From Euryarchaeota archaeon UBA171 (GTDB taxonomy: Archaea > Thermoplasmatota > Poseidoniia > Poseidoniales > Thalassarchaeaceae): 64,000 nucleotides of DNA. Under the pieces are notes generated by a model. It was not told where the DNA came from. It saw only the letters and a list, made by a program, of their open reading frames with translations, and did not search any database. Shown piece after piece: positions 5,506-20,551 of this stretch (position 1 is the first letter of the stretch; every line of letters starts with the position of its first letter). The DNA lies in contig DANO01000025.1 of the NCBI GenBank assembly GCA_002497295.1, positions 71,098 to 135,097 on the forward strand, given 5' to 3'. The translations under genes were made by a program, and so were the position numbers.

Positions 5506-6042
5506 AGACTCTATGTCGGGCCATTTTGATTTGAGCATCTGAACATCGGCTTCCGTATCTATATTGAGATTCATATGGGGGTCCTCTACTTCGAACCTCA
5601 TAGGAGCACAGAGGCTACTGAGAGGCGTATCTGGTAGTGCATGCTTGACCGCTTCTATAGATGCCTCGTCAAGAAGTATGGGATGGCCTCCTCTGCCACC
5701 ATTCGATGGGCAGGTACAAACTTCAGAGTCAATAAGGCGTCTGAGAGTTTGGGATGAGAAGCCGGGCCGATCCACCGGCGCTACTATGGCACGCTTTGGC
5801 CATCTAAGAGCCGTAAGACCACATTTTATCGATCCTGTTCTACCGCTATCGGGATCAGAATTAACACAATTAATGGCGCCAAAAAGTGGCACTTCGTCTT
5901 CATCCCACTGCGTAGAGCTAACGACGCAGACCCTAAGCCCATGACTCATCATCATCTGAGCCATTGCTGAGACAAGAGGCCTACCCCCAACTTCAATCAA
6001 AGCTTTGTCCCTGCCAAGTCTTCGACTGAAGCCTCCTGCCAA
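5470..6042 (-). CDS. MobA/MocA-like molybdenum cofactor nucleotidyltransferase
   Basis: The N-terminus LAGGFSRRLGRDKALIEVGGRPLV is the NTP_transf_3 signature. It has a TTG start, and the frame stays open upstream (..NYCII), so the true start is uncertain. The 3' end overlaps the converging membrane-protein gene. Confidence 0.8.
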   Translation of the reverse strand: MAGGFSRRLGRDKALIEVGGRPLVSAMAQMMMSHGLRVCVVSSTQWDEDEVPLFGAINCVNSDPDSGRTGSIKCGLTALRWPKRAIVAPVDRPGFSSQTLRRLIDSEVCTCPSNGGRGGHPILLDEASIEAVKHALPDTPLSSLCAPMRFEVEDPHMNLNIDTEADVQMLKSKWPDIESSWKVDAHPEQY

Positions 6043-6079
6043 GATTATGCAATAATTTTCTGATGATTTATCCAGTATA

Positions 6080-7033
6080 TCACGACCCCATGAAGAGGCG
6101 AATTATGTATGCTCCATATCCAACAAGCATGAGCCCCCCCAGAGGGCGGGAAAGACCCTTTCCGATGAGTATCGAGCAGGCCGCAAGTCCCGAGCTGGCC
6201 ACAAGCACCCATATGTCCAAATCCAAGAACGAATCAGCAATTCCGATTCCGCCGCCGACTATCGAACCTATGCTGAGTACTGCCATCACATTTGCAACAT
6301 TCGACCCAAGTATGTTGCCTATAGCTACGCCTTGCACACCACGTAATGATGCGGTTATCGTGACTGCAAGTTCTGGTAAAGAGGTTCCAAATGCAACCAA
6401 CGTGAGGCCGATAACAGTCTCAGGAACACCCATCGATATGGCAACCCCCTCGCCCCCTTCTATCAGAAAGTCAGATCCATATTTCACCAAAACTAGACCT
6501 CCGATAAATGCAATAGAAGCAATACCCATGCCGCCTGGAATCCACGATTCTCCATCCTCGCTCGAGTCCTCTCCTCTTGTTTTCAGGATGTATGCGAAGT
6601 AGACGCCCATCGAAAATATCGACATCACTCCCAACCATGCAGGGAACTCGCCCAATAGAGTCGCTCCAAGGACTACCCCCGTCGCGACTAGTAGCATCAA
6701 TGCATCTTCTCGAAGATTTTTGTCGGGCTTGGATGTTGCACCAAGAATAATTGCTATTGAAAGGACGAGCATCACATTGGCGATATTCGACCCCAACACC
6801 CCTCCAACAGCCAAATCAACAGACTCTTCCGTGCCTCGGCTTAACGCGTTCAAAACAACTCCTAGCTCAGGAAGACTCGTACCAATTGCAACTAATGTGA
6901 AACCCACTAGGAACGAAGGCATACCAAAATGGCTTGCTATTTTCATTGATCCTTGAACCACCGCCTCTCCTCCAAATACTAGGAGTATGAGGCCAATACA
7001 AAGGAGGACCTCGTCCGGAAGTCCCCCGATCAT
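6080..7033 (-). CDS. Na+/Ca2+ exchanger family (CaCA, YrbG-like) membrane protein
   Basis: Two alpha-repeat signatures are present (GTSLPELGVVLNA and GTSLPELAVTITA), with about 10 hydrophobic segments and an acidic central loop. Confidence 0.85.
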   Translation of the reverse strand: MIGGLPDEVLLCIGLILLVFGGEAVVQGSMKIASHFGMPSFLVGFTLVAIGTSLPELGVVLNALSRGTEESVDLAVGGVLGSNIANVMLVLSIAIILGATSKPDKNLREDALMLLVATGVVLGATLLGEFPAWLGVMSIFSMGVYFAYILKTRGEDSSEDGESWIPGGMGIASIAFIGGLVLVKYGSDFLIEGGEGVAISMGVPETVIGLTLVAFGTSLPELAVTITASLRGVQGVAIGNILGSNVANVMAVLSIGSIVGGGIGIADSFLDLDIWVLVASSGLAACSILIGKGLSRPLGGLMLVGYGAYIIRLFMGS

Positions 7034-7090
7034 GATATGTCCGCAACGCCCAGTGGCATATAAGAAGCGGATGATTTCTCACTCGACCAT

Positions 7091-9922
7091 TCAAATCATT
7101 CTTCGAATATGCGTCGCAACTAAGTTTGAATCTGGGAGCATATAATCTTCGAGAGGAGGCGAAAATGGTACAGGAGTATCCAAAGCGCCAATCACTACAG
7201 GAGGCCCCTCTAGGGACCAAAATGATCCTTCAACTATGGATGAACAAACAGTATGTCCGAAACCGCCGGTCCACTGAGCCTCTTGAAGAACGATTAGTCG
7301 ACCTGTTCGATTAACAGACTCAATACATGTAGCCGAATCAAGAGGATGAAGAGTTCTAAGATCTATTACTTCTACTTCTATGCCCTCTCGAGAGACCATC
7401 TTCGAAGCACTCATTGCAACATGCACCATAGCCCCCCAGGTCACTACCGTGATATCCCTCCCGGGGCGAGTCACACGCGCTTTACCTATCGACGTAGTGC
7501 CCGTCATGATTCGTTGTTCAGCCATCGAAGTGTCCACTGATTGACTGATGCGGTCTCCCCATCCTGTAAGCCCGCCCCTCAACCCATACAGGCCTATATG
7601 CTCCAGAAGTATGAATGGATCATCGGTAGCAGCCCCTTCTAGCAGGAGGTCATAGGCATCTTGGGGATTCGACGGGAATCCAATCAAGAGGCCGGGATCG
7701 TTTAGCAACCAAGATTCAATCATATTTGCATGGAACGGGCCACTTCTTGTTTTCCCGCCAAGCGGTATTCTAACAGTTATCGGCACATCGGCACCCCATC
7801 TCCATCGGAGCTGTGCTGCATTATTCACGAGAGCATTCATTGCTAATGCAGCGAATCCTCCAAACTGTATTTCTGCTACTGGTCGCAACCCCCCCATTGC
7901 TGCACCTGTGGCGCTGTTGATGATGATGGATTCTGAAAGAGGCATGTCGAGTAGCTTATCCCCATGTCCTTTGGCTTTGAGAGCCAGATTGAGGCCGAAT
8001 GCGCCAGCAACCTCCATGTCCTCTCCCATGAATATTGATAGATCCCCAGATCTCTCCGCGATTTCAACCATGGCGCTTTGTATTGCTTTGCTGAACGTCC
8101 ATGCATTAGATGCATCACTGAACTCCATTGGAGTCAATATTGGAGAAGCAGATTTCTCAGAGCCTTTCTCTAGGATTTCCAATTGTTGGTCGTGAGTTCT
8201 TGCATTACTCATCATAGTCACGCCGGTTATCACTGATTCAGGATCAGGCCAAGGCATTGCCTCTACCTTGTAGCGTGCCTCCTCGCAAAGAGCCTCCTCC
8301 TCTTGATAAATCAATTTAACATCTCTAGCGCCAGCTCCCATCTTCCTGATCAAAACCTCGTGATTCGATATCGGCTCTTTATCAGCCCAGTAATTCAGTA
8401 GATCACGATCAACATATCCTGGAGGATTACCGCTCTCAGCGCCCAGATACAGGTCGTCATGATGATGCGCGTGTCCGCACCCACGCATGGTCTCTACATG
8501 GATTATGGACCCGCCTCCTCCTGAAATTGCAAGCTCACGTGCGACAGCAACCGACGCGTAATACGCAGATGGATCAGACCCGTCTATCGTCCAAGCAGGC
8601 AAACCTACAGCAACGCCCTTGTCTCCAAACGTCTCTGCTCCAGATTGCCGCCCCGAGAATGTATCGAGAGCAATTTGATTATTTTGAATAATATAGCAGA
8701 TTGGAAGGCCTCTGACTCCTGCCAGATTTATCGCTTCCCAGAATTCCCCGCTGCTGCTGCACCCTTCCCCTACGGGCGCGAGATGGAATCGCCTTATTCC
8801 CAATCGTTTCGATGCAAGAGCTACTCCCGTAATCGTTGCACTTGCAATCGGTAAAGGTGCAGTGGGCGGAAGTATTCCTTTACTCCAATCTCCTATGTGA
8901 AGGTCCCTGCCCCCGCCTCCAATGTGTCCTCCATTCATTTTAGACTCTGATTTACCCATTTGTGCAGCCATTATCGATAGAGGCGTCTGGCCAAGTGCCA
9001 AGGCAAGTCCGAGATCCCTAATCATAGGGGCAGCAAAATCTGTACCCTTCTCGATAGCCATTCCACAGGCAGCAACAGCTTCCTGCCAAGTTGACCTGAA
9101 CCCCTTTCCGCCAAACCTCGCTCCTTCCGGGGTCTCCACACCTTTTACGAACAAGTCTTTCAGATGCTCATCGAGTATCTTCGTTCTGACCATCCATCGA
9201 TGCCACTCAAGGCGCTGTTCGAGAGTCACTGCAGCCGAATAGGCCAATCTTCTCAGAGTTAGCCGAATATCCAATACGAATCTAGATCTACGCCTTGATA
9301 GATACGTTCTGCCATCCCTCCGTGGCATGATCTCCATTTCTAGAACGTCTCCGACTTCAAGATCATGCAGACGCTCATCGAAAGCCTCGTACAAGCACTT
9401 CGAAAACGATTCCGACCAGTTGTGGAAATCATCTCCATTCATCGATTTGACGGGCAAGTTAGATTCCAGAACAGATGCAACCAAGTTTAGATGTCCATCC
9501 CACCTCTCAGCAACAAATCTTAGGATTTCTGACCGAATAACTTCCCAGTGTAGCGGCTTAGAAAATTTCAGAGGAGCTTCCGGCTGCCAATCCACGCCCC
9601 ATATCGGCGGCAGATCGGATTGCTCCTTCACACCGCTCTCCACCGTATTCTTCAATGCATGATTTCTGCTATCAGCCTCTCGAATTAGTGCCTCTTCGCC
9701 GACCCCAGGTCTCATCCAAACCCTTGCATCAGAGGTCCTACCTTGTCCGCTGCCTGAACGCTCGATAAGCACTCGAGTCCGCTCCGAGCATTTTGAGCAT
9801 CGCCTGTCCAGTGCTTTGAGGCCCCTTTTCGAAGAAAACCATGGTTGATGATGCATACATGCAGGACACCTCCATATCCCTGATGATGGTGTGCTCATGA
9901 TACCTGCAGAACGATAAAGCAC
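7091..9922 (-). CDS. Fused 2-oxoacid dehydrogenase E1 component (alpha+beta in one chain, branched-chain type) with N-terminal Cys4 zinc-ribbon extension
   Basis: The alpha part carries a ThDP motif, VGEGCSSSGEFWEAINLAGVRGLPICYIIQNNQIA. The beta part reads FMGEDMEVAGAFGLN...DMPLSESIIINSATGAAMGGLRPVAEIQFGGFA. The first roughly 210 aa are unrelated and contain CPAC-x19-CSKC. It has a GTG start at 9922, with an alternative ATG at 9898. Confidence 0.85.
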   Translation of the reverse strand: MLYRSAGIMSTPSSGIWRCPACMHHQPWFSSKRGLKALDRRCSKCSERTRVLIERSGSGQGRTSDARVWMRPGVGEEALIREADSRNHALKNTVESGVKEQSDLPPIWGVDWQPEAPLKFSKPLHWEVIRSEILRFVAERWDGHLNLVASVLESNLPVKSMNGDDFHNWSESFSKCLYEAFDERLHDLEVGDVLEMEIMPRRDGRTYLSRRRSRFVLDIRLTLRRLAYSAAVTLEQRLEWHRWMVRTKILDEHLKDLFVKGVETPEGARFGGKGFRSTWQEAVAACGMAIEKGTDFAAPMIRDLGLALALGQTPLSIMAAQMGKSESKMNGGHIGGGGRDLHIGDWSKGILPPTAPLPIASATITGVALASKRLGIRRFHLAPVGEGCSSSGEFWEAINLAGVRGLPICYIIQNNQIALDTFSGRQSGAETFGDKGVAVGLPAWTIDGSDPSAYYASVAVARELAISGGGGSIIHVETMRGCGHAHHHDDLYLGAESGNPPGYVDRDLLNYWADKEPISNHEVLIRKMGAGARDVKLIYQEEEALCEEARYKVEAMPWPDPESVITGVTMMSNARTHDQQLEILEKGSEKSASPILTPMEFSDASNAWTFSKAIQSAMVEIAERSGDLSIFMGEDMEVAGAFGLNLALKAKGHGDKLLDMPLSESIIINSATGAAMGGLRPVAEIQFGGFAALAMNALVNNAAQLRWRWGADVPITVRIPLGGKTRSGPFHANMIESWLLNDPGLLIGFPSNPQDAYDLLLEGAATDDPFILLEHIGLYGLRGGLTGWGDRISQSVDTSMAEQRIMTGTTSIGKARVTRPGRDITVVTWGAMVHVAMSASKMVSREGIEVEVIDLRTLHPLDSATCIESVNRTGRLIVLQEAQWTGGFGHTVCSSIVEGSFWSLEGPPVVIGALDTPVPFSPPLEDYMLPDSNLVATHIRRMI

Positions 9923-14167: not shown

Positions 14168-14896
14168 CTAATTTCCAAGTCCATGGGCCTTAAGCAAATC
14201 ATCGCCTGTAAGCATGGGTATGGAATGACGCATCGCATAGATCCGGGCTTCTTCTACGGGAAGCGCACCATCTCCGTCCGGTTGAAGCATCTCAGCTCCA
14301 ATAGTACACGGCCTCAACCCGGCAAGTCTTGCAATGCTCACGGCCAGCTCAGTATGCCCCTGTCGAGCAGTCAATCCCCCCGGTGCTTCTCTACATACGG
14401 GGATATGGCCCGGTGTTCGAAATTCATTGCCCAAGGCCTCACGAGCCTTTTTCGGCGATATATTAGATCGCATCAATTCGTCGCACAACTCCCCAAATCT
14501 CCTCGTAGTCAGCGCTCTATCCCTGTCTGTAATGCCAGTGTACGTATCTCTATGGTTGATTGATAGTGTGAATGCGGACCGGGTATCGTACTGAAGATCG
14601 TTGGTCTTAAGCAAATCAAGAACAGGGTGAAGAGTAGTCAACGCCGGATGAATGTGTATATCTTGAAGCCAAGGTAAATCGAACATGCCCCCGATCTCTT
14701 CGCCTATCGCAAGAAAGAGTAATCCTCCGCAATCTTGTCTAAGTTTTCGTATGACACCCGGACTGGCATATTGAGCCGGCCAGAGTAGATCAGTCTCGCA
14801 CTCTCTGAAAGACGAATCGAAAACCATTACTGGCTTACCTTTGCTGAATGCGTCAACTGCCAAGGCCACTTGATCCGCCCCCCTCGTCGCGTCCAT
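14168..14896 (-). CDS. ribB: 3,4-dihydroxy-2-butanone 4-phosphate synthase (archaeal type)
   Basis: FDSSFRECETDLLW, SINHRDTYTGITDRDRA, FRTPGHIP and RQGHTELAV align with archaeal RibB. The ORF track starts at 15043, but that would overlap the divergent gene, so I use the ATG at 14896 (MDATRGAD). Confidence 0.85.
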   Translation of the reverse strand: MDATRGADQVALAVDAFSKGKPVMVFDSSFRECETDLLWPAQYASPGVIRKLRQDCGGLLFLAIGEEIGGMFDLPWLQDIHIHPALTTLHPVLDLLKTNDLQYDTRSAFTLSINHRDTYTGITDRDRALTTRRFGELCDELMRSNISPKKAREALGNEFRTPGHIPVCREAPGGLTARQGHTELAVSIARLAGLRPCTIGAEMLQPDGDGALPVEEARIYAMRHSIPMLTGDDLLKAHGLGN

Positions 14897-14919
14897 GAGT
14901 CTCCCTCCCGATGTTCTGC

Positions 14920-14925
14920 TAAATA
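14920..14925. promoter_or_regulatory. Putative shared TATA element (TAAATA / TATTTA) in the 74-bp divergent ribB / protease-MFS intergenic region
   Basis: It lies 24-29 nt from the ribB ATG, consistent with a leaderless transcript, and about 46-51 nt from the ATG at 14971. It is the only AT-rich word in the gap. Confidence 0.3.
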
Positions 14926-14970
14926 GGGTGACGTTTCGACCCCATAGGTTTCCAATTGAGCGCAAGTAAC

Positions 14971-17900
14971 ATGAGGCACGCCTCACACGGGAACCTGATG
15001 ACGACCTCGCGTCGAGCAGTTGCCCTCCTGATATTGGCAACATTGCTCATTCCTCTTACCGCTTCTCAGATCTATTCTAGAGATGATGAAAGAGGGGGTT
15101 ATGACCATGCTGGCGAGTGGCAACCAAGGCATGCTCTGGAGATCCATGATGGATGGTGGAACGATTGGTCCAGAGACTCTAACCAAAACATGATTGACGA
15201 TAGGCTTGAATGGCTACTTGAACAACCAACTGAGTTCTATTCCAGTTGGTGGAGAATGGCAGATGCCGGCAATGCAAGGGTATTCATCGATTATGATCAC
15301 CACCCCTCTTCAGCAGATGTCGAGGCGATTGAAGAACTGGGCATTGAAGTTACAATGCGTCCGATATACCTGGACAGTTTGATCGCCACAGTCCCAATTG
15401 ACCTCCTCCATTCTGAATCGCCAATCCTCGATCTATCGGGAGTCGTCATGCTGGAGGATCTAGGTTTGGCTGAAACCCACATGAACGAAGCAGCCCCAAA
15501 TATGGGCGTCGACCAAGTATGGGCTCAGTATGGCTATGATGGAACAGGAGTCACTATCGCTGTACTTGATACTGGAGTGAGGGGAGATCACGAGGGCCTC
15601 AATGATTTGGATGACGAGATTACGTTAGGTTGTGATCAACCCGATCCAGACCCGTTCAACCCAACCCCAATCACAATCGATTGCGATCCAAAGATATCCG
15701 CTTTCTATGATGCTGTAATCACTAACTCCGAGCGACCAGCAAGTGAATCTTATGATTCAGGGACCCATGGTTCACATGTTGCGGGCATTGCTGCTGGCAC
15801 AGGCGGCGGACAAGAGGCGCCTGACGGTTCGGCGTATGTTGGAATCGCACCAGGTGCATGGGTGGTCAATATCCTCGCATGTTGTGAAGGCGATATCCAA
15901 GATGTGATAGAAGGTGCGCAGTGGGCAATTGAGAATAAGAATTCTAAAGGCATAGACATTCTAACATCTTCACTTGGCGAGCAGCAGTTGGAGATTCATT
16001 TCGATAATGACGGCTCATCAGCATGGAGCCAACAGATGGATGCCGTCGCAGCATCTGGAATCATCACATTCCTCTCAGCTGGAAATGAATTTGGTGGCGC
16101 AACATTAGCCGGCTGCAATACCATCGACAGCCCAGGCGATGCAAATCTTCCCATCACAGTCGCAAGTCTGGATAAGGATCTGGGTCTGGCCATCTATTCA
16201 AGCAGGGGTTATACCTCAGATGGGCGAGTCAAGCCCGACGTTTCTACGATAGGATCGAACATAATGGCTCCTGATGCCGCTACCTCTGATGGCTACACGA
16301 GTAAATCTGGAACCAGTATGGCAACCCCGCTCATGGCAGGTATTGCTGCACTGATGGTCGAGGCAAACCCGGATATCGACCACGAACAGGTCAAGTCTAT
16401 CGTAAGTGCTCTCTCGATAGAACGCGATATTCAACTTCTCGACGATCCTGGATTCAATGACTGTAGTGTTTTGGAAACCCGTCCAGATAACGAGTTTGGA
16501 TACGGTCAGGCAGATCCTCTATCTTTCGTACAGGCAGCAGGCGCAATAGATTCTTCCTTGAACGTTTCAATGAACATTGAAACGTTGGAGCATCTAGGGA
16601 ATGAGTCTAGGATATCAGGCACTTCGACAGGCGGGGTTCCAGGCGTCGGATTCGTAGAGGTTATGGTTGGAGGCGACGATTGGAAGCAAGCAGCCGACCT
16701 ATCATCTGGGGGAGACTGGTCGTCTTGGAACATTAAGTTGGATCCACATACTCAGTCAGGCAACTCGACAGTGTATGCCCGGCTGGTGATTAGCGATGAG
16801 AGGATGTCTCCCGTGGATGCCCGAAGAGTCGTACTCGTGGATGAGGCAGCGGGCTCAAGCGGAGGCGCTGGGGGACAGTCTTCCGTTGGAGCATACGTAT
16901 TCTTCATCCCCTTCCTCGCCACTCTTGCACTTCTCGGGTGGACCGCCCTTAGGGAAGACTGGTCCACAAGCCCCGTTAAGAAGCAAGAAAATGATGAGGA
17001 AGATGGCGAATCAACCCCCTCTTCAAATTGGCGAGAAGATCCATTCAGATTCTTGTCCGAATTACGACGGGGAGGACCACTCACCGAGAATGGAACCAAG
17101 AGGCTTCTAACACTGTGCATTCTTTACTTTGCACAAGGCCTCCCATGGGGCTTTGCCAGCGTCACATTTGCGGCATACCTGGTTGACAATGGAGTCCCGA
17201 TTGGCGATATCGCCATACTGTTTGCCACGGTAGCGTTACCTTGGACATTCAAGTGGATATGGGGGCCAGTCGTGGATGCTGTGAATATACCTCGATACGG
17301 CGCTAGAAGGCAATGGGTACTCATAGCCCAGGCAGGTATGGTTGTCACACTGGGGACGCTCCTCCTAGTACCTGACTTGAATGCTGAGATAGACCTAGTA
17401 ACACGCTTATTGTTCGTACACAACATATTCGCTTCCCTACAGGATGTCGGTACAGATGCTCTGGCGGTGGAGATACTTGAGCCAAATGAGGTGGCCAAGG
17501 CCAACGGCTTCATGTTTGCAGCCAAGAGGGCCGGAATTATCGTCGGCGGCGCTGTGCTCGGAGTCTCAGTTACTCAAATCGGCATCAGTGGCGTGATTGC
17601 CATCCAACTCGTACTCCTTTCCCTCATATTGCTCGTTCCACTTACCATGGTCGAGAAGCCAGGCGTCAAATTGTTCCCTTGGTCCAAGTCTGATGAAAGT
17701 CAGTGGTGGGATGATTCAGACGGTCAAGATGATGCACAGGGCATTGACGTCGAAGGATCTGAGGTATCAGAGCCATGGCTGGAAGAGCAGAGATTCAAGA
17801 TTGCTCGGAAAGTCGGATTGACGCTGGATAGTAGGAGAATATCCGTATCTGCATTCTTTACCATAGCGGCTCTGTTAGTGTGGATAGTCGGATTCGCAAT

Positions 17901-18780
17901 AGATGTCTTCACAATCGATTTCAAGCTAGGCGATAACATCAGACAGATCACCAATCCCGTGAGCTACCTCTTCTTCCTGATATCATTAGTCGCATTCGCT
18001 CTTTCCGCGAGAGGGATATTGGGATCGAGCGTGACGAACCCATTAGCACGCCTTCCCGAGGGGACGAGGCGAGGCGTAGCCGAAACCTCATTCTATCTTA
18101 CAAAGGCATTCTCTGTCCGTTCTGCTTTGCTATTGATAGGGCTCTGCTTACTCTCCGAACTCTACATATTCGTGGCCCCAATTGTGATTGACATCTTCAT
18201 CAATGAAGCAGGCTGGTCCCAGGCGAAGTACAATGGAATAGTCGGGGGAATCGTGGTCTTCGGTGCGCTAATTGGCCAAATAATCGGAGGTCTGCTGGGA
18301 GATAGATTCGGCGTAAGGAGAGTTGCGATGGTCGGATTTACTGTACTGGCTCTTGCGAATGCATGTTTCGCACTCCTCGAACCCCTTTGGTCCAACACCT
18401 CGATAATGACAGTCTACCTGATTGCGCAGGCGTTTGTCGGCGGGATGGCGTGGATATGCATCATTTCGCTGAGTATGAGGCTGACATGGAGCAAGGTGGG
18501 AGGAACTCAATTCACAGCATACATGTCCCTGTTCAATCTCTCAGGCGTCTTTGCATACACTCTAACGGAGAGGATGATTTCGGTATTCGACTACAAGTCT
18601 GCCATCTACATTGGTGCTACTTTGACCCTGTTAACAGTGTTCATGCTTGTATTCATTGATGAGGACGAGACTGACAGAATCCTCGAGGGCGATGACATAC
18701 ATTCACAAGATGAGCCAGAAATATTCGAACCAATCCTAGGCGATGTGATGATCGATGAAAAACCCGCTGCAGCAGTTTGA
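14971..18780 (+). CDS. Fusion protein: secreted subtilisin-like (S8) serine protease + single TM + AmpG/PAT-like major facilitator transporter
   Basis: One uninterrupted ORF. The signal or anchor is RRAVALLILATLLIPLTAS. The S8 motifs are IAVLDTGV (Asp), THGSHVAGIAAG (His), LSAGNEFGG (Asn) and SGTSMATPLMAG (Ser). A TM helix VGAYVFFIPFLATLALLGW and an acidic linker follow. The MFS part then carries YFAQGLPWGFA...LPWTFKWIWGPVVD...YGARRQWVL (AmpG-like) and at least 12 hydrophobic segments. The track start is a TTG at 14956; I prefer the ATG at 14971. Confidence 0.85.
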   Translation: MRHASHGNLMTTSRRAVALLILATLLIPLTASQIYSRDDERGGYDHAGEWQPRHALEIHDGWWNDWSRDSNQNMIDDRLEWLLEQPTEFYSSWWRMADAGNARVFIDYDHHPSSADVEAIEELGIEVTMRPIYLDSLIATVPIDLLHSESPILDLSGVVMLEDLGLAETHMNEAAPNMGVDQVWAQYGYDGTGVTIAVLDTGVRGDHEGLNDLDDEITLGCDQPDPDPFNPTPITIDCDPKISAFYDAVITNSERPASESYDSGTHGSHVAGIAAGTGGGQEAPDGSAYVGIAPGAWVVNILACCEGDIQDVIEGAQWAIENKNSKGIDILTSSLGEQQLEIHFDNDGSSAWSQQMDAVAASGIITFLSAGNEFGGATLAGCNTIDSPGDANLPITVASLDKDLGLAIYSSRGYTSDGRVKPDVSTIGSNIMAPDAATSDGYTSKSGTSMATPLMAGIAALMVEANPDIDHEQVKSIVSALSIERDIQLLDDPGFNDCSVLETRPDNEFGYGQADPLSFVQAAGAIDSSLNVSMNIETLEHLGNESRISGTSTGGVPGVGFVEVMVGGDDWKQAADLSSGGDWSSWNIKLDPHTQSGNSTVYARLVISDERMSPVDARRVVLVDEAAGSSGGAGGQSSVGAYVFFIPFLATLALLGWTALREDWSTSPVKKQENDEEDGESTPSSNWREDPFRFLSELRRGGPLTENGTKRLLTLCILYFAQGLPWGFASVTFAAYLVDNGVPIGDIAILFATVALPWTFKWIWGPVVDAVNIPRYGARRQWVLIAQAGMVVTLGTLLLVPDLNAEIDLVTRLLFVHNIFASLQDVGTDALAVEILEPNEVAKANGFMFAAKRAGIIVGGAVLGVSVTQIGISGVIAIQLVLLSLILLVPLTMVEKPGVKLFPWSKSDESQWWDDSDGQDDAQGIDVEGSEVSEPWLEEQRFKIARKVGLTLDSRRISVSAFFTIAALLVWIVGFAIDVFTIDFKLGDNIRQITNPVSYLFFLISLVAFALSARGILGSSVTNPLARLPEGTRRGVAETSFYLTKAFSVRSALLLIGLCLLSELYIFVAPIVIDIFINEAGWSQAKYNGIVGGIVVFGALIGQIIGGLLGDRFGVRRVAMVGFTVLALANACFALLEPLWSNTSIMTVYLIAQAFVGGMAWICIISLSMRLTWSKVGGTQFTAYMSLFNLSGVFAYTLTERMISVFDYKSAIYIGATLTLLTVFMLVFIDEDETDRILEGDDIHSQDEPEIFEPILGDVMIDEKPAAAV

Positions 18781-19018
18781 GGAAGTCGAAACCGACTTCC
18801 TAGTATTTTCAAAGACGGTATGCGGCTATTGTGTGGCTGCAAAGAGACTTCTGGAAGGCTCTCGCATGTCATACACCGAAATCAATCTAGATGACGACAT
18901 CCAGCTACGATCTGACTTGATAATGGCAACAGGGCATAGGACTGTGCCATTAATTTTCGATCTGAGGGCGGAAGTAGTATTCGTCGGAGGATTCGATGAA
19001 CTGAAGACATATCTCTAA
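18755..19018 (+). CDS. Glutaredoxin-like protein
   Basis: At 87 aa it has the CGYC active site, TVPLIF and a VGGFDEL end. It overlaps the 3' end of the protease-MFS gene by 26 nt. Confidence 0.75.
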   Translation: MKNPLQQFEEVETDFLVFSKTVCGYCVAAKRLLEGSRMSYTEINLDDDIQLRSDLIMATGHRTVPLIFDLRAEVVFVGGFDELKTYL

Positions 19019-19600: not shown

Positions 19601-20551
19601 TCAGAGACTCCACGAGTATCCTATCCCTCCGGCAATCATTATGCTGAGATCGGTCTGACCTGTGAAACTAGCCGTCAAGGTATATTCTCCGCTTGGCGAG
19701 GGAATGGTCCCTAATGTCCCGGACTCAGATGAGCCGGGCCCCCAGAATCTTTCGAGCACTGATGATGAGGTGTGATCTCTTAGGGTCAATGTGATACTGG
19801 AACCTCCTCCGCCTGCAGATGCATCCATCAGGTAGATCATCTCGTCCCATGACCCGTCATTGGGGTGTTCTTGGACAAGAAAAGAGTCTTCCACGTCTGC
19901 ATTTGCACCATCGTTTTCATAATCTCTGGAAAGAAGGTCTTTCCCTCTCATGAAATGCACTTCTCCCGAATGCTCTGAGCCACTTTGGGCAAGAGTGATT
20001 CTTAGCAATTCGAGCCCATTAGAATCCTTTCTGACAAACGAGGTGATGAATTCTATTGACTTATCGTAAGTATAGGTCAAGATACCTCCATCTGATCCCG
20101 TCGCAGTAACATACGCCCTTCCACCCTCCAGGGTCGAACGAGCTTCCCAATCTATGTCGAAAAGAGTAAATGTCCATGAGTTACTTGAAAGCGGGAATGA
20201 GAGCACTGGTTGTTCAAATCCGTTTTCAAAGACTCCCAGTGTCGAGTGGGTAATTCTACCAAGGAATGGGTTATGATTGAGAACAGCATGCCTTCTTGCC
20301 TCTTCTTCCGAAGATATTCCGAGCATATACGCAGTCCCTCCCTCCTCTTCATCCGCAGTGGCAACCACAAGGCGTGCAGAGTCGTCATAGAATTCAGGAG
20401 TAGTGAATGTGAATAGCCACCAGTCACCGATTTCCCACTCGGGAACTTCGAGATCTTCACTACCTCCAAGAATGTTGTTTGTAGAGCCCATACACCCCTG
20501 TAGGGCAATGGAAAGAACTGCTAGAGTAGATAGCAACTTGGGTCCGAACAT
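19601..20551 (-). CDS. Secreted protein of unknown function with lipobox-like signal peptide
   Basis: The N-terminus is MFGPKLLSTLAVLSIALQGCMGS. The rest is hydrophilic and acidic with no recognised domain. It lies immediately upstream of the hydrolase gene, with a 1-nt gap. Confidence 0.6.
   Translation of the reverse strand: MFGPKLLSTLAVLSIALQGCMGSTNNILGGSEDLEVPEWEIGDWWLFTFTTPEFYDDSARLVVATADEEEGGTAYMLGISSEEEARRHAVLNHNPFLGRITHSTLGVFENGFEQPVLSFPLSSNSWTFTLFDIDWEARSTLEGGRAYVTATGSDGGILTYTYDKSIEFITSFVRKDSNGLELLRITLAQSGSEHSGEVHFMRGKDLLSRDYENDGANADVEDSFLVQEHPNDGSWDEMIYLMDASAGGGGSSITLTLRDHTSSSVLERFWGPGSSESGTLGTIPSPSGEYTLTASFTGQTDLSIMIAGGIGYSWSL

Follow-up and report, generated by a model that had tools for sequence, protein, structure and literature searches.

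Tk-SP of Thermococcus kodakarensis is a secreted soluble protease of broad specificity with a degradative role. The transporter SLC33A1 (AT-1) moves its substrate from the cytosol into the lumen of the endoplasmic reticulum (ER). In the peptidase-containing ATP-binding cassette (ABC) transporters (PCATs), a C39 peptidase is fused to a bacteriocin ABC exporter. For the permease AmpG, motif A and the substrate- and proton-site residues K62, D70, R79/R80, D125, D129, D134 and R153 have been demonstrated experimentally, and its extra helices have been described (PMC12214514). A. baumannii AmpG1 has a periplasmic domain to which the hydrolase Slt binds, and binding and mutant data led to a published model in which cleavage is coupled to import (PMC13507758, JBC 2026). 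Here we describe a gene of the Poseidoniales archaeon UBA171 in which a subtilase and a transporter of the major facilitator superfamily (MFS) form a single chain. The gene lies in a stretch of 64,000 nucleotides of contig DANO01000025.1 (positions 71,098 to 135,097), called the window below, where it occupies 14971..18780 on the plus strand (1269 codons from the ATG, plus the stop). Each half comes from a known superfamily (S8 peptidases and PAT-family MFS). No published protease-MFS fusion was found in the literature searched, including a targeted reading of genomic and transcriptomic papers on Marine Group II (MGII), in agreement with the initial annotation of the window, whose author knew of no characterised fusion of this kind. 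One MGII paper reports S8 among predicted extracellular peptidases and another lists subtilase among highly transcribed genes, and neither mentions the transporter half.

The protein opens with a signal peptide and a putative propeptide, which are followed by an intact S8 subtilase and a beta-sandwich domain. A Gly/Ser tether, a transmembrane (TM) helix named TM0 and an acidic linker in the cytosol then lead to a 14-TM MFS permease of PAT/AmpG-like type. The open reading frame (ORF) is free of stops on the plus strand from TTG 14956 or ATG 14971 to 18780, giving 1269 aa counted from the ATG; the chance of 1274 codons without a stop in random sequence is about 3e-27. The initial annotation had described one uninterrupted ORF with four parts in order (a signal or anchor, the protease, linkers around one TM helix, and the MFS domain). 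The ORF list, Pfam and hydropathy bore this out, and all eight motifs quoted there were recovered in the translation at the positions given. The propeptide region (aa 33-172) and the beta-sandwich (aa 525-626) are additions to that description. A protein search returned the same protein as P0001 (100% identity, 1269 aa). The true start is probably Met10 (nt 14998), because Met10 is invariant in the alignment and many homologues begin there.

The catalytic domain of the protease half (aa 191-512; 15541..16506, plus strand) matched Pfam Peptidase_S8 (PF00082) with an E-value of 1.6e-43 and 149.5 bits against a cutoff of 21.8, and the match covered profile positions 1-288 of 288. The four S8 motifs are IAVLDTGV at aa 196, THGSHVAG at aa 265, SAGNEFGG at aa 369 and SGTSMATP at aa 446. 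Catalytic Asp200 (15568..15570), His266 (15766..15768) and Ser449 (16315..16317) and the oxyanion-hole Asn372 (16084..16086), all on the plus strand, were invariant in alignments A1, A2 and A5 (20, 39 and 33 sequences, respectively, the set of 33 including stand-alone S8 relatives). The Asp-His-Ser order of the triad and the oxyanion Asn that characterise family S8 are therefore present, and a pseudoprotease was rejected on the invariant tetrad. An AlphaFold model of aa 1-700 (mean predicted local distance difference test score, pLDDT, of 75, and about 85-95 in the S8 core) places the S8 domain close to subtilisins BPN' and Carlsberg by Foldseek (TMt 0.85-0.88, root-mean-square deviation about 3.3 Å). 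The nearest solved S8 by sequence was Tk-SP (PDB 3afg/9ues, E about 5e-34), which was also the best fold match of the whole ectodomain (E 2e-26 over 587 columns; Foldseek). Tk-SP is likewise built as propeptide, S8 and C-terminal beta-jelly-roll, but it has neither TM0 nor a transporter, its solved chains comprise 427-539 residues, and its identity to the fusion is ~24%.

Ahead of the catalytic domain, a Sec-type signal peptide, MTTSRRAVALLILATLLIPLTAS (aa 10-32; 14998..15066, plus strand), was recognised from a hydropathy peak of 2.13 and from alignment A1; small residues at -3/-1 (A/S-S) are kept among the homologues in A1, and the peptide is predicted to be cleaved. Tat export is unlikely, since RR is not conserved (GRS and GRH in homologues). 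The following N-terminal extension and putative subtilisin-type propeptide (aa 33-172; 15067..15486, plus strand) were delimited with DSSP on the AlphaFold model and Foldseek. This region contains a beta-alpha-beta-beta-beta unit at aa 101-163 (pLDDT 77-88 in the model of aa 1-700), and the best Foldseek matches of that model were 3afg (ProN-Tk-SP) and 3whi (unprocessed pro-subtilisin E), both of which carry a propeptide, with low whole-chain TM-scores; a Pfam scan gave no Inhibitor_I9 match here. Behind the catalytic domain, an all-beta, jelly-roll-like domain (aa 525-626; 16543..16848, plus strand) was modelled with about 8 strands at pLDDT 86-92. The 3afg alignment covers this domain, and a domain of this kind also follows S8 in Tk-SP.

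The two halves are connected by a flexible Gly/Ser-rich tether, AGSSGGAGGQSS (aa 627-638; 16849..16884; pLDDT <50, variable in A1), by TM0 (aa 639-661; 16885..16953), an out-to-in helix with a hydropathy of 1.93 that is modelled as helical over aa 639-661, and by an acidic, indel-rich cytosolic linker (aa 662-707; 16954..17091; hydropathy and A1), all on the plus strand. The TM0 segment VGAYVFFIPFLATLALLGW begins at aa 639 (nt 16885-16941) and is homologous across all ectodomain variants described below. Between the signal helix and TM0, hydropathy and DSSP gave no credible TM segment. Fourteen TM helices follow TM0 (six, two extra, and six), as counted from hydropathy and from DSSP on the AlphaFold model, where 12 or more had been proposed initially. 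The MFS N-lobe with TM1-TM6 (aa 708-893; 17092..17649, plus strand) was delimited by Pfam, NCBIfam, the model and alignment, and carries the signatures YFAQGLPWGFA at aa 719, LPWTFKWIWGPVVD at aa 756 and YGARRQWVL at aa 776. A central acidic loop and the two extra TM helices (aa 894-1029; 17650..18057, plus strand; hydropathy, A1 and model) come next. These two helices, the counterpart of the 'extra helices' of E. coli-type AmpG, are poorly conserved and are absent from two of the variants described below, P0124 (X-MFS) and P0126 (M28-MFS). The C-lobe with TM7-TM12 (aa 1030-1229; 18058..18657, plus strand) was delimited by Pfam MFS_1 (1064-1237), hydropathy and the model, and has a second motif-A-like loop, GGLLGDRFGVRR, in TM8-9. 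MFS_1 scored 98.9 bits against a cutoff of 33.4, and BT1 and Acatn also matched the C-terminal half. Motif A (G-x-x-x-D-R/K-x-G-R-R/K) in the TM2-3 loop reads WGPVVD...YGARR; most of the residues of the two motif-A loops are invariant in A1, namely D769, G777, R779, R780, G1106, G1107, L1109, G1110, D1111, G1114 and R1116. An acidic cytosolic tail (18658..18777, plus strand), defined from alignments, ends the protein. Right after TM12 stands the motif FID-(E/P)-DET-(D/R)-R-x-LEG (window 18652-18690, aa 1228-1240), which is common to the S8, X, M28, cupredoxin and Marine Group III (MGIII) versions.

Because TM0 runs out to in and is followed by an even number of helices, both MFS termini would be cytoplasmic, and the K/R-bearing motif-A loops (TM2-3 and TM8-9) are predicted on the cytoplasmic side, as in MFS transporters. 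The topology is thus self-consistent, as was claimed when the gene was first noticed. In a second AlphaFold model, of aa 70-1269 (mean pLDDT 60, pTM 0.49), the MFS half had a pLDDT of 70-90 and best matched AmpG (8zke, TMt 0.85, E 1e-11) and SLC33A1. The top 50 Foldseek matches were all MFS structures except for two Tk-SP (3afg) chains, which aligned to the protease half. The C-terminal part is therefore modelled as a transporter with the MFS fold.

The transporter half belongs to the PAT family within the MFS. An AmpG/PAT affinity had been proposed from the first helices, and it was upheld by NCBIfam, by a sequence search of solved structures, by Foldseek and by N-lobe alignment. The best NCBIfam model was TIGR00901 (AmpG family), which covered aa 710-1227 with 127.7 bits against a cutoff of 350; the AmpG models PRK11010 and PRK11902 also stayed under their cutoffs (55.3 versus 756 and 76.2 versus 656, respectively), and the next-best match was to the RhtX/FptX siderophore importers. 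The PAT family (TC 2.A.1.25) signature FK-x-x-W-x-P-x-x-D ... G-R-R, together with S-x-Q-D-x-x-x-D, is present in the N-lobe. The N-lobe of AmpG from E. coli or Yokenella regensburgei (9c3f, 8zgz, 8zke, 9j9z) is alignable over about 180 residues, in which AmpG K62, D70, R79/R80, D125, D129, D134 and R153 align to K761, D769, R779/R780 (motif A), D825, D829, E834 and R853 of the fusion, and AmpG Tyr152 corresponds to Lys852. K761, D769, R779/R780, D825, D829 and R853 are invariant positions. The pocket residues K62, D125 and R153 are thus kept, and the C-lobe residues R365, D238 and E326 of AmpG are not alignable by sequence. AmpG resembles the fusion MFS in having two extra helices between the lobes, but it shares only 16-18% identity and has no TM0 and no ectodomain. 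Among solved structures, SLC33A1 (9m0s, 9mun) came closest by sequence (E 1.7e-09, and 3e-11 for the N-lobe alone); it shares the PAT N-lobe signature, and Pfam Acatn also matches the fusion. In contrast to the fusion, SLC33A1 works in the eukaryotic ER, transports a nucleotide cofactor in the physiological direction opposite to that proposed for the fusion, and has no enzyme attached. The Lys, Asp and motif-A Arg residues recur in SLC33A1; these conserved charges are marks of the PAT family and do not point to one substrate.

A true AmpG muropeptide permease was rejected for the missed curated cutoffs and the archaeal host. The muropeptide-like or glycopeptide substrate that the initial annotation had suggested is likewise unsupported, given the TIGR00901 score and a host that has no murein; to our knowledge, MGII and MGIII archaea lack it.

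Selective constraint was measured as the ratio of nonsynonymous to synonymous substitution rates (dN/dS) by the Nei-Gojobori method (NG86), comparing the fusion gene with close relatives at dS 0.27-1.0. The ratio was 0.00-0.02 in the S8 core, 0.00-0.05 in the beta domain, 0.05-0.08 in the propeptide, 0.00-0.01 in the MFS N-lobe and 0.01-0.06 in the C-lobe. It rose to 0.09-0.26 in the tether, TM0 and cytosolic linker, to 0.12-0.23 in the central loop and extra helices, and to 0.3-0.8 in the tail, which evolves quickly beyond the FID motif. These data show that the transporter core is constrained as strongly as the protease core and that the linkers are relaxed. The equal constraint on the two cores argues against a decayed anchor, and an MFS decayed to a bare anchor was rejected on its dN/dS of 0.00-0.06.

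The fusion recurs in dozens of species. A protein search of ENA, NCBI, JGI, Tara and Logan assemblies gave >120 full-length clusters of the same architecture (1255-1330 aa, 58-100% identity), on contigs of up to 1.3 Mb, and the organism names of the hits are Poseidoniales, Thalassarchaeaceae or Marine Group II/III archaea. HMMER found a second fusion cluster, P0122 (47% identity, 1166-1176 aa), which UniRef and NCBI place in Marine Group III/Poseidoniia. A scan of GTDB species representatives with an alignment of the MFS only gave 573 relatives, and the best 80 loci, all Poseidoniales and mostly Thalassarchaeaceae (MGIIb), were classified by ORF: 56 encode S8-MFS (49 complete ORFs and 7 ended by a contig edge), 20 carry another ectodomain, and 4 are cut at the 5' end. 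Of the S8-MFS loci, three belong to single-cell genomes (AG-422-I22, AG-343-E09 and AG-422-I18; L044, L055 and L056), and one (L089) lies on a contig of 1.6 Mb. At none of the 80 GTDB loci were protease and MFS separate genes, none of the 56 S8-MFS loci has a stop at the junction, and the domain order was in frame and intact in every relative examined. The fusion is real and not an assembly artefact. Neither split genes nor a non-transporter fold was found, so the fusion first proposed from this window stands.

Two pairs of contigs with near-identical S8-MFS genes were observed, each pair within one species-representative metagenome-assembled genome (L017/L018 in TMED192 and L020/L022 in SP42); strain mixtures in the bins are more likely here than true paralogues. 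In databases the protein is named "hypothetical protein" or "MFS transporter", and the JGI product name is "subtilisin family serine protease/MFS family permease".

The relatives of the MFS half align from TM0, or from just ahead of it, onward, and their N-terminal domains differ. All variants share TM0 (FF-I/L-P-F/W-F...), the acidic linker, the TM1 motif LY-x-AQG-x-PWGF and the C-terminal FID-x-DET-x-R. One variant, X-MFS (~890 aa), has a Cys-rich ectodomain of ~250 aa (e.g. L030:4290-5102) in place of the propeptide, S8 and beta domains, and sits in the chromosomal slot of S8-MFS at 20 of the 80 GTDB MGIIb loci (L027-L040, L043, L051, L057-L059, L074) and also as P0288 (L012/L013). Its ectodomain has the conserved motifs YMYFWG, GYGEI, SGNCGG and CSGSFRMYYS, and gave no Pfam match even at E 10 and no PDB match by sequence or profile; the ectodomains of P0124, P0127 and P0128 gave no Pfam or PDB match. 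A comparison of alignments A4 and A1 by hhalign (probability 95.9, aa 604-667) showed that homology starts at the last ectodomain strand and continues through the linker and TM0. Because the homology of X-MFS to S8-MFS begins only there, this region of last strand, linker and TM0 is the swap boundary. In a neighbour-joining (NJ) tree of the MFS modules, from which only shallow, well-supported groupings were used (deep-node bootstraps were unreliable, the reference tree and the replicates being rooted differently), X-MFS stands at two places within the MGIIb S8-MFS radiation.

A different peptidase is found in P0126 (869 aa, a 134-member cluster on contigs of up to 157 kb), whose Peptidase_M28 ectodomain has Vibrio leucyl aminopeptidase as its nearest solved relative and shows readable HxD, DDG, EE, D and DH metal-ligand motifs. 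M28-MFS (L007-L009; gene 6001-8610 in L007) is in the same slot, with genes for glutaredoxin (Grx), hydrolase, a hypothetical protein, H+-pyrophosphatase (H+-PPase), GATase and NifU. Some proteins of its sister clade carry the name Ca. Poseidoniaceae, and most ectodomains there are of the cupredoxin type or of a further type, X2. The cupredoxin versions (P0129, P0364-P0405; L014/L015, gene 6001-7983) have a plastocyanin/azurin-type domain (PF00127) with the type-1 copper ligands H ... C-x-x-H-x-x-M. They comprise many Poseidoniales proteins of 636-690 aa, with many MGIIa-type proteins among them, and are encoded elsewhere in the genome, beside acyl-CoA dehydrogenase and 3-hydroxyacyl-CoA dehydrogenase; the X2 version also occurs outside the S8-MFS slot. 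At the position equivalent to AmpG R153 (aa 852-853, nt 17524-17529), the S8/X clade of MGIIb and MGIII has Arg (motif AKR), and the M28, X2 and cupredoxin proteins seen have Leu, Ser and Met (KL, KS, HM); this cavity difference tracks clade and not ectodomain type. The stand-alone MFS relatives P0130, P0133 and P0134 lie on short contigs with uninformative context. The gene abutting P0133 looks by eye like an alpha/beta hydrolase (GHSFGG) and lacks subtilase motifs.

We propose, tentatively and at slightly below an even chance, that the protein is a surface subtilase zymogen fused to a proton-coupled PAT-family (AmpG/SLC33A1-like) MFS permease, and that it cleaves and imports, the substrate, direction and coupling being inferred. 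The Sec signal would export the N-terminal half; the propeptide would assist folding of S8 and then be lost by autoprocessing; and the mature S8 and beta-sandwich would stay outside, on the flexible Gly/Ser tether at TM0, which may pack beside the 14-TM permease or lead into it. The protease could then cut proteins or peptides outside the cell only nanometres away from the mouth of the permease, and the permease could use the proton gradient to import oligopeptide-sized products, so that less is lost by diffusion in dilute seawater. Cleavage of the signal and the propeptide, a peptide substrate, import as the direction and kinetic coupling are all putative. We favour this reading because the fusion is long conserved, its halves are equally constrained, and a second peptidase class was independently recruited. 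The replacement of S8 by an M28 peptidase at the orthologous locus is Rosetta-stone support for it. The coupling model of A. baumannii AmpG1 and Slt supports it further, as does the proteolytic ecology of MGII, which are described as protein-degrading photoheterotrophs with highly transcribed subtilases (PMC9723583, PMC6864105 and PMC6336850).

Several observations weigh on the other side. MGII also encode ABC oligopeptide transporters (PMC6336850). The characterised PAT substrates are muropeptides and acetyl-CoA, the next-best NCBIfam match is to RhtX/FptX siderophore importers, and plain peptides are not among these substrates; with a score under the AmpG cutoff, no substrate can be predicted from homology. 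The protease hangs on a flexible tether, and in the model of aa 70-1269 the S8 half is mostly below 50 pLDDT, so that no docking of protease and permease can be read from it. Ectodomains that are not proteases, the Cys-rich and the type-1 copper domains, stand on the same TM0 and MFS, which is thus a platform with interchangeable ectodomains and not always with a protease. The MFS of the main X-MFS group is 64-70% identical to that of the window, and many S8-bearing relatives reach only 51-57%. The M28 version is a single narrow lineage of about 7 clusters at 98-99% identity, as found in a search with its MFS.

A wider form of the proposal, which we consider possible and would expect to fail more often than hold, is that Poseidoniia possess a modular process-and-import family, in which ectoenzymes (S8, M28, blue-copper and at least two others) are swapped at one locus on a PAT chassis with TM0, each of them pre-processing a substrate at the transporter mouth.

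The interchangeable ectodomains are also what one would expect if TM0 and the MFS were a generic platform whose permease cargo is unrelated to the protease products, the fusion giving 1:1 expression and surface retention in a streamlined genome. S8 and X ectodomains alternate at one slot on a nearly unchanged MFS, X-MFS is nested twice in the S8-MFS radiation, and blue-copper and other ectodomains stand on MFS modules of 62-66% identity. The late onset of homology between X-MFS and S8-MFS fits such a platform as well, and the flexible tether implies no fixed geometry. However, one TM helix would suffice for anchoring, and yet the 14-TM core is constrained like the protease. The MFS has also retained motif A and its charged cavity residues, two unrelated peptidase classes were recruited to the same module, and the fusion either predates the split of MGIIb and MGIII or has spread between both. 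On balance we hold mere co-localisation to be unlikely, if a serious competitor to cleavage and import.

A transporter of this family could also work outward, exporting a precursor or small molecule that the subtilase matures outside, or the protease could act on surface proteins of the cell itself. Uptake is not the only direction in the family, as indicated by SLC33A1, which is one of the two solved structures closest to the permease. Leader peptidases are found among S8 enzymes, and mycosin and PatA/PatG-type maturation proteases are among the weak NCBIfam matches of the fusion. NisT/NisP work in this way, and peptidase-containing ABC exporters offer an analogy. Nonetheless, the neighbours (riboflavin genes, Grx, hydrolase and H+-PPase) include no precursor-peptide or biosynthetic genes, and the MGIII context differs again. 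Tk-SP, the closest solved S8, is degradative, and an M28 ectodomain resembling leucyl aminopeptidase fits nutrient degradation better than maturation. We therefore regard export and processing as improbable.

More improbable still is a regulatory ectodomain, in which the protease or propeptide would sense or plug the permease and proteolysis would serve activation, not nutrition. Swappable ectodomains could be sensor modules, and the FID-x-DETDR-x-LEG tail hints at a regulatory interface, but such a system is without precedent, and a plug would need neither the full catalytic tetrad nor the subtilisin-like substrate-binding fold, both of which are strictly kept. A chimeric assembly or missed frameshift joining two genes has a negligible probability, given a continuous ORF in hundreds of independent assemblies, in single-cell genomes and on the 1.6-Mb contig, no split case, and codon-level purifying selection on the junction.

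In the window, the fusion gene is located between a divergent riboflavin cluster (ribH, ribE, ribL-like and ribB) and genes for Grx (plus strand), an alpha/beta hydrolase, a 316-aa protein and H+-PPase (all minus strand), a slot kept in 80 of 80 GTDB loci and in a 60%-identical relative. The glutaredoxin-like gene (18755-19018, plus strand; Pfam Glutaredoxin, E 4.5e-14) overlaps the 3' end of the fusion gene by 26 nt, as the initial annotation had noted. The link suggested there from the overlap is weakened: the two genes are co-directional and adjacent throughout MGIIb, but the overlap is not conserved, and the Grx start lies from -25 to about +100 nt from the fusion stop in MGIIb, with +311 nt at L074. 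The MGIII fusion is in an unrelated context, with TGT upstream and an RRM protein downstream, and Grx is absent next to it; in the M28 lineage Grx runs on the other strand. Its link to the fusion gene amounts to synteny within MGIIb and probably reflects co-transcription. Glutaredoxin as an obligate partner was rejected on its absence in MGIII and inversion in the M28 lineage, and the conserved unit is the fusion gene itself.

The 316-aa protein (window 19601-20551, minus strand) has a lipoprotein-like N-terminus (LALQGCMGS) and 0 Pfam matches, and its gene stands between the ectodomain-MFS gene and the H+-pyrophosphatase gene in essentially all 80 Poseidoniales loci. On the other side, the mechanical ORF of ribB (DHBP synthase; 14168-15043, minus strand) would overlap the start of the fusion gene (14956-15043, plus strand). 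The Pfam match of ribB begins 13 residues past a Met encoded at 14896, and it is more likely that the two genes are divergent with an intergenic region of ~100 nt (14897-14997) than that they overlap; a TAAATA element is present near 14921 in this putative intergenic region. The window contained 0 tRNA genes and 0 Rfam matches.

The uncultured Marine Group II archaea rank with the most abundant heterotrophs in surface waters of the ocean and are considered to feed on protein, both dissolved and particulate. When a free-living cell releases enzymes into dilute water, most of the products diffuse away. If the cleave-and-import reading is true, joining a protease directly to its importer would answer this loss in minimal form, with a single gene and at the inner membrane, by analogy with the "selfish" uptake of Bacteroidota. 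Under the wider, modular form of the proposal, the S8 version would be the first case of an extracellular protease coupled covalently to a secondary transporter, and it would explain mechanistically how these abundant planktonic archaea capture the hydrolysis products of high-molecular-weight protein before they diffuse away. For transporter biology, it would place an unusual N-out helix and an enzyme ectodomain on an MFS, and the natural domain-swap series (S8, M28, cupredoxin and X) on a near-constant permease would suit tests of ectodomain specificity. Even if the two activities are only co-localised, the annotation as "hypothetical protein" or "MFS transporter" is corrected. Localisation-based surveys are likely to count the fusion proteins as extracellular S8 peptidases.

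Three known systems combine an enzyme with transport in comparable ways. Mycosin (MycP) of type VII secretion is an extracytoplasmic subtilase with one C-terminal TM helix that stands beside a membrane transport machine. However, the match of the fusion to the mycosin model TIGR03921 is far under the cutoff (56 bits versus 278.75), and mycosin is a polypeptide of its own within a secretion complex, not joined to a secondary transporter. In AmpG1-Slt, as in the fusion, a PAT permease is physically joined through an extracytoplasmic domain to a hydrolase. The joint is non-covalent there and is made by a binding domain, and the enzyme, a lytic transglycosylase, works on the wall of its own bacterial cell, whereas the protease of the fusion is in the same chain. 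PCATs share the logic of a peptidase and a membrane transporter in one chain, with cleavage coupled to transport. They differ in using a cytoplasmic cysteine peptidase (C39) and an ABC exporter to cleave and export, while the fusion combines a predicted extracytoplasmic S8 with an MFS and thus falls outside the PCAT class.

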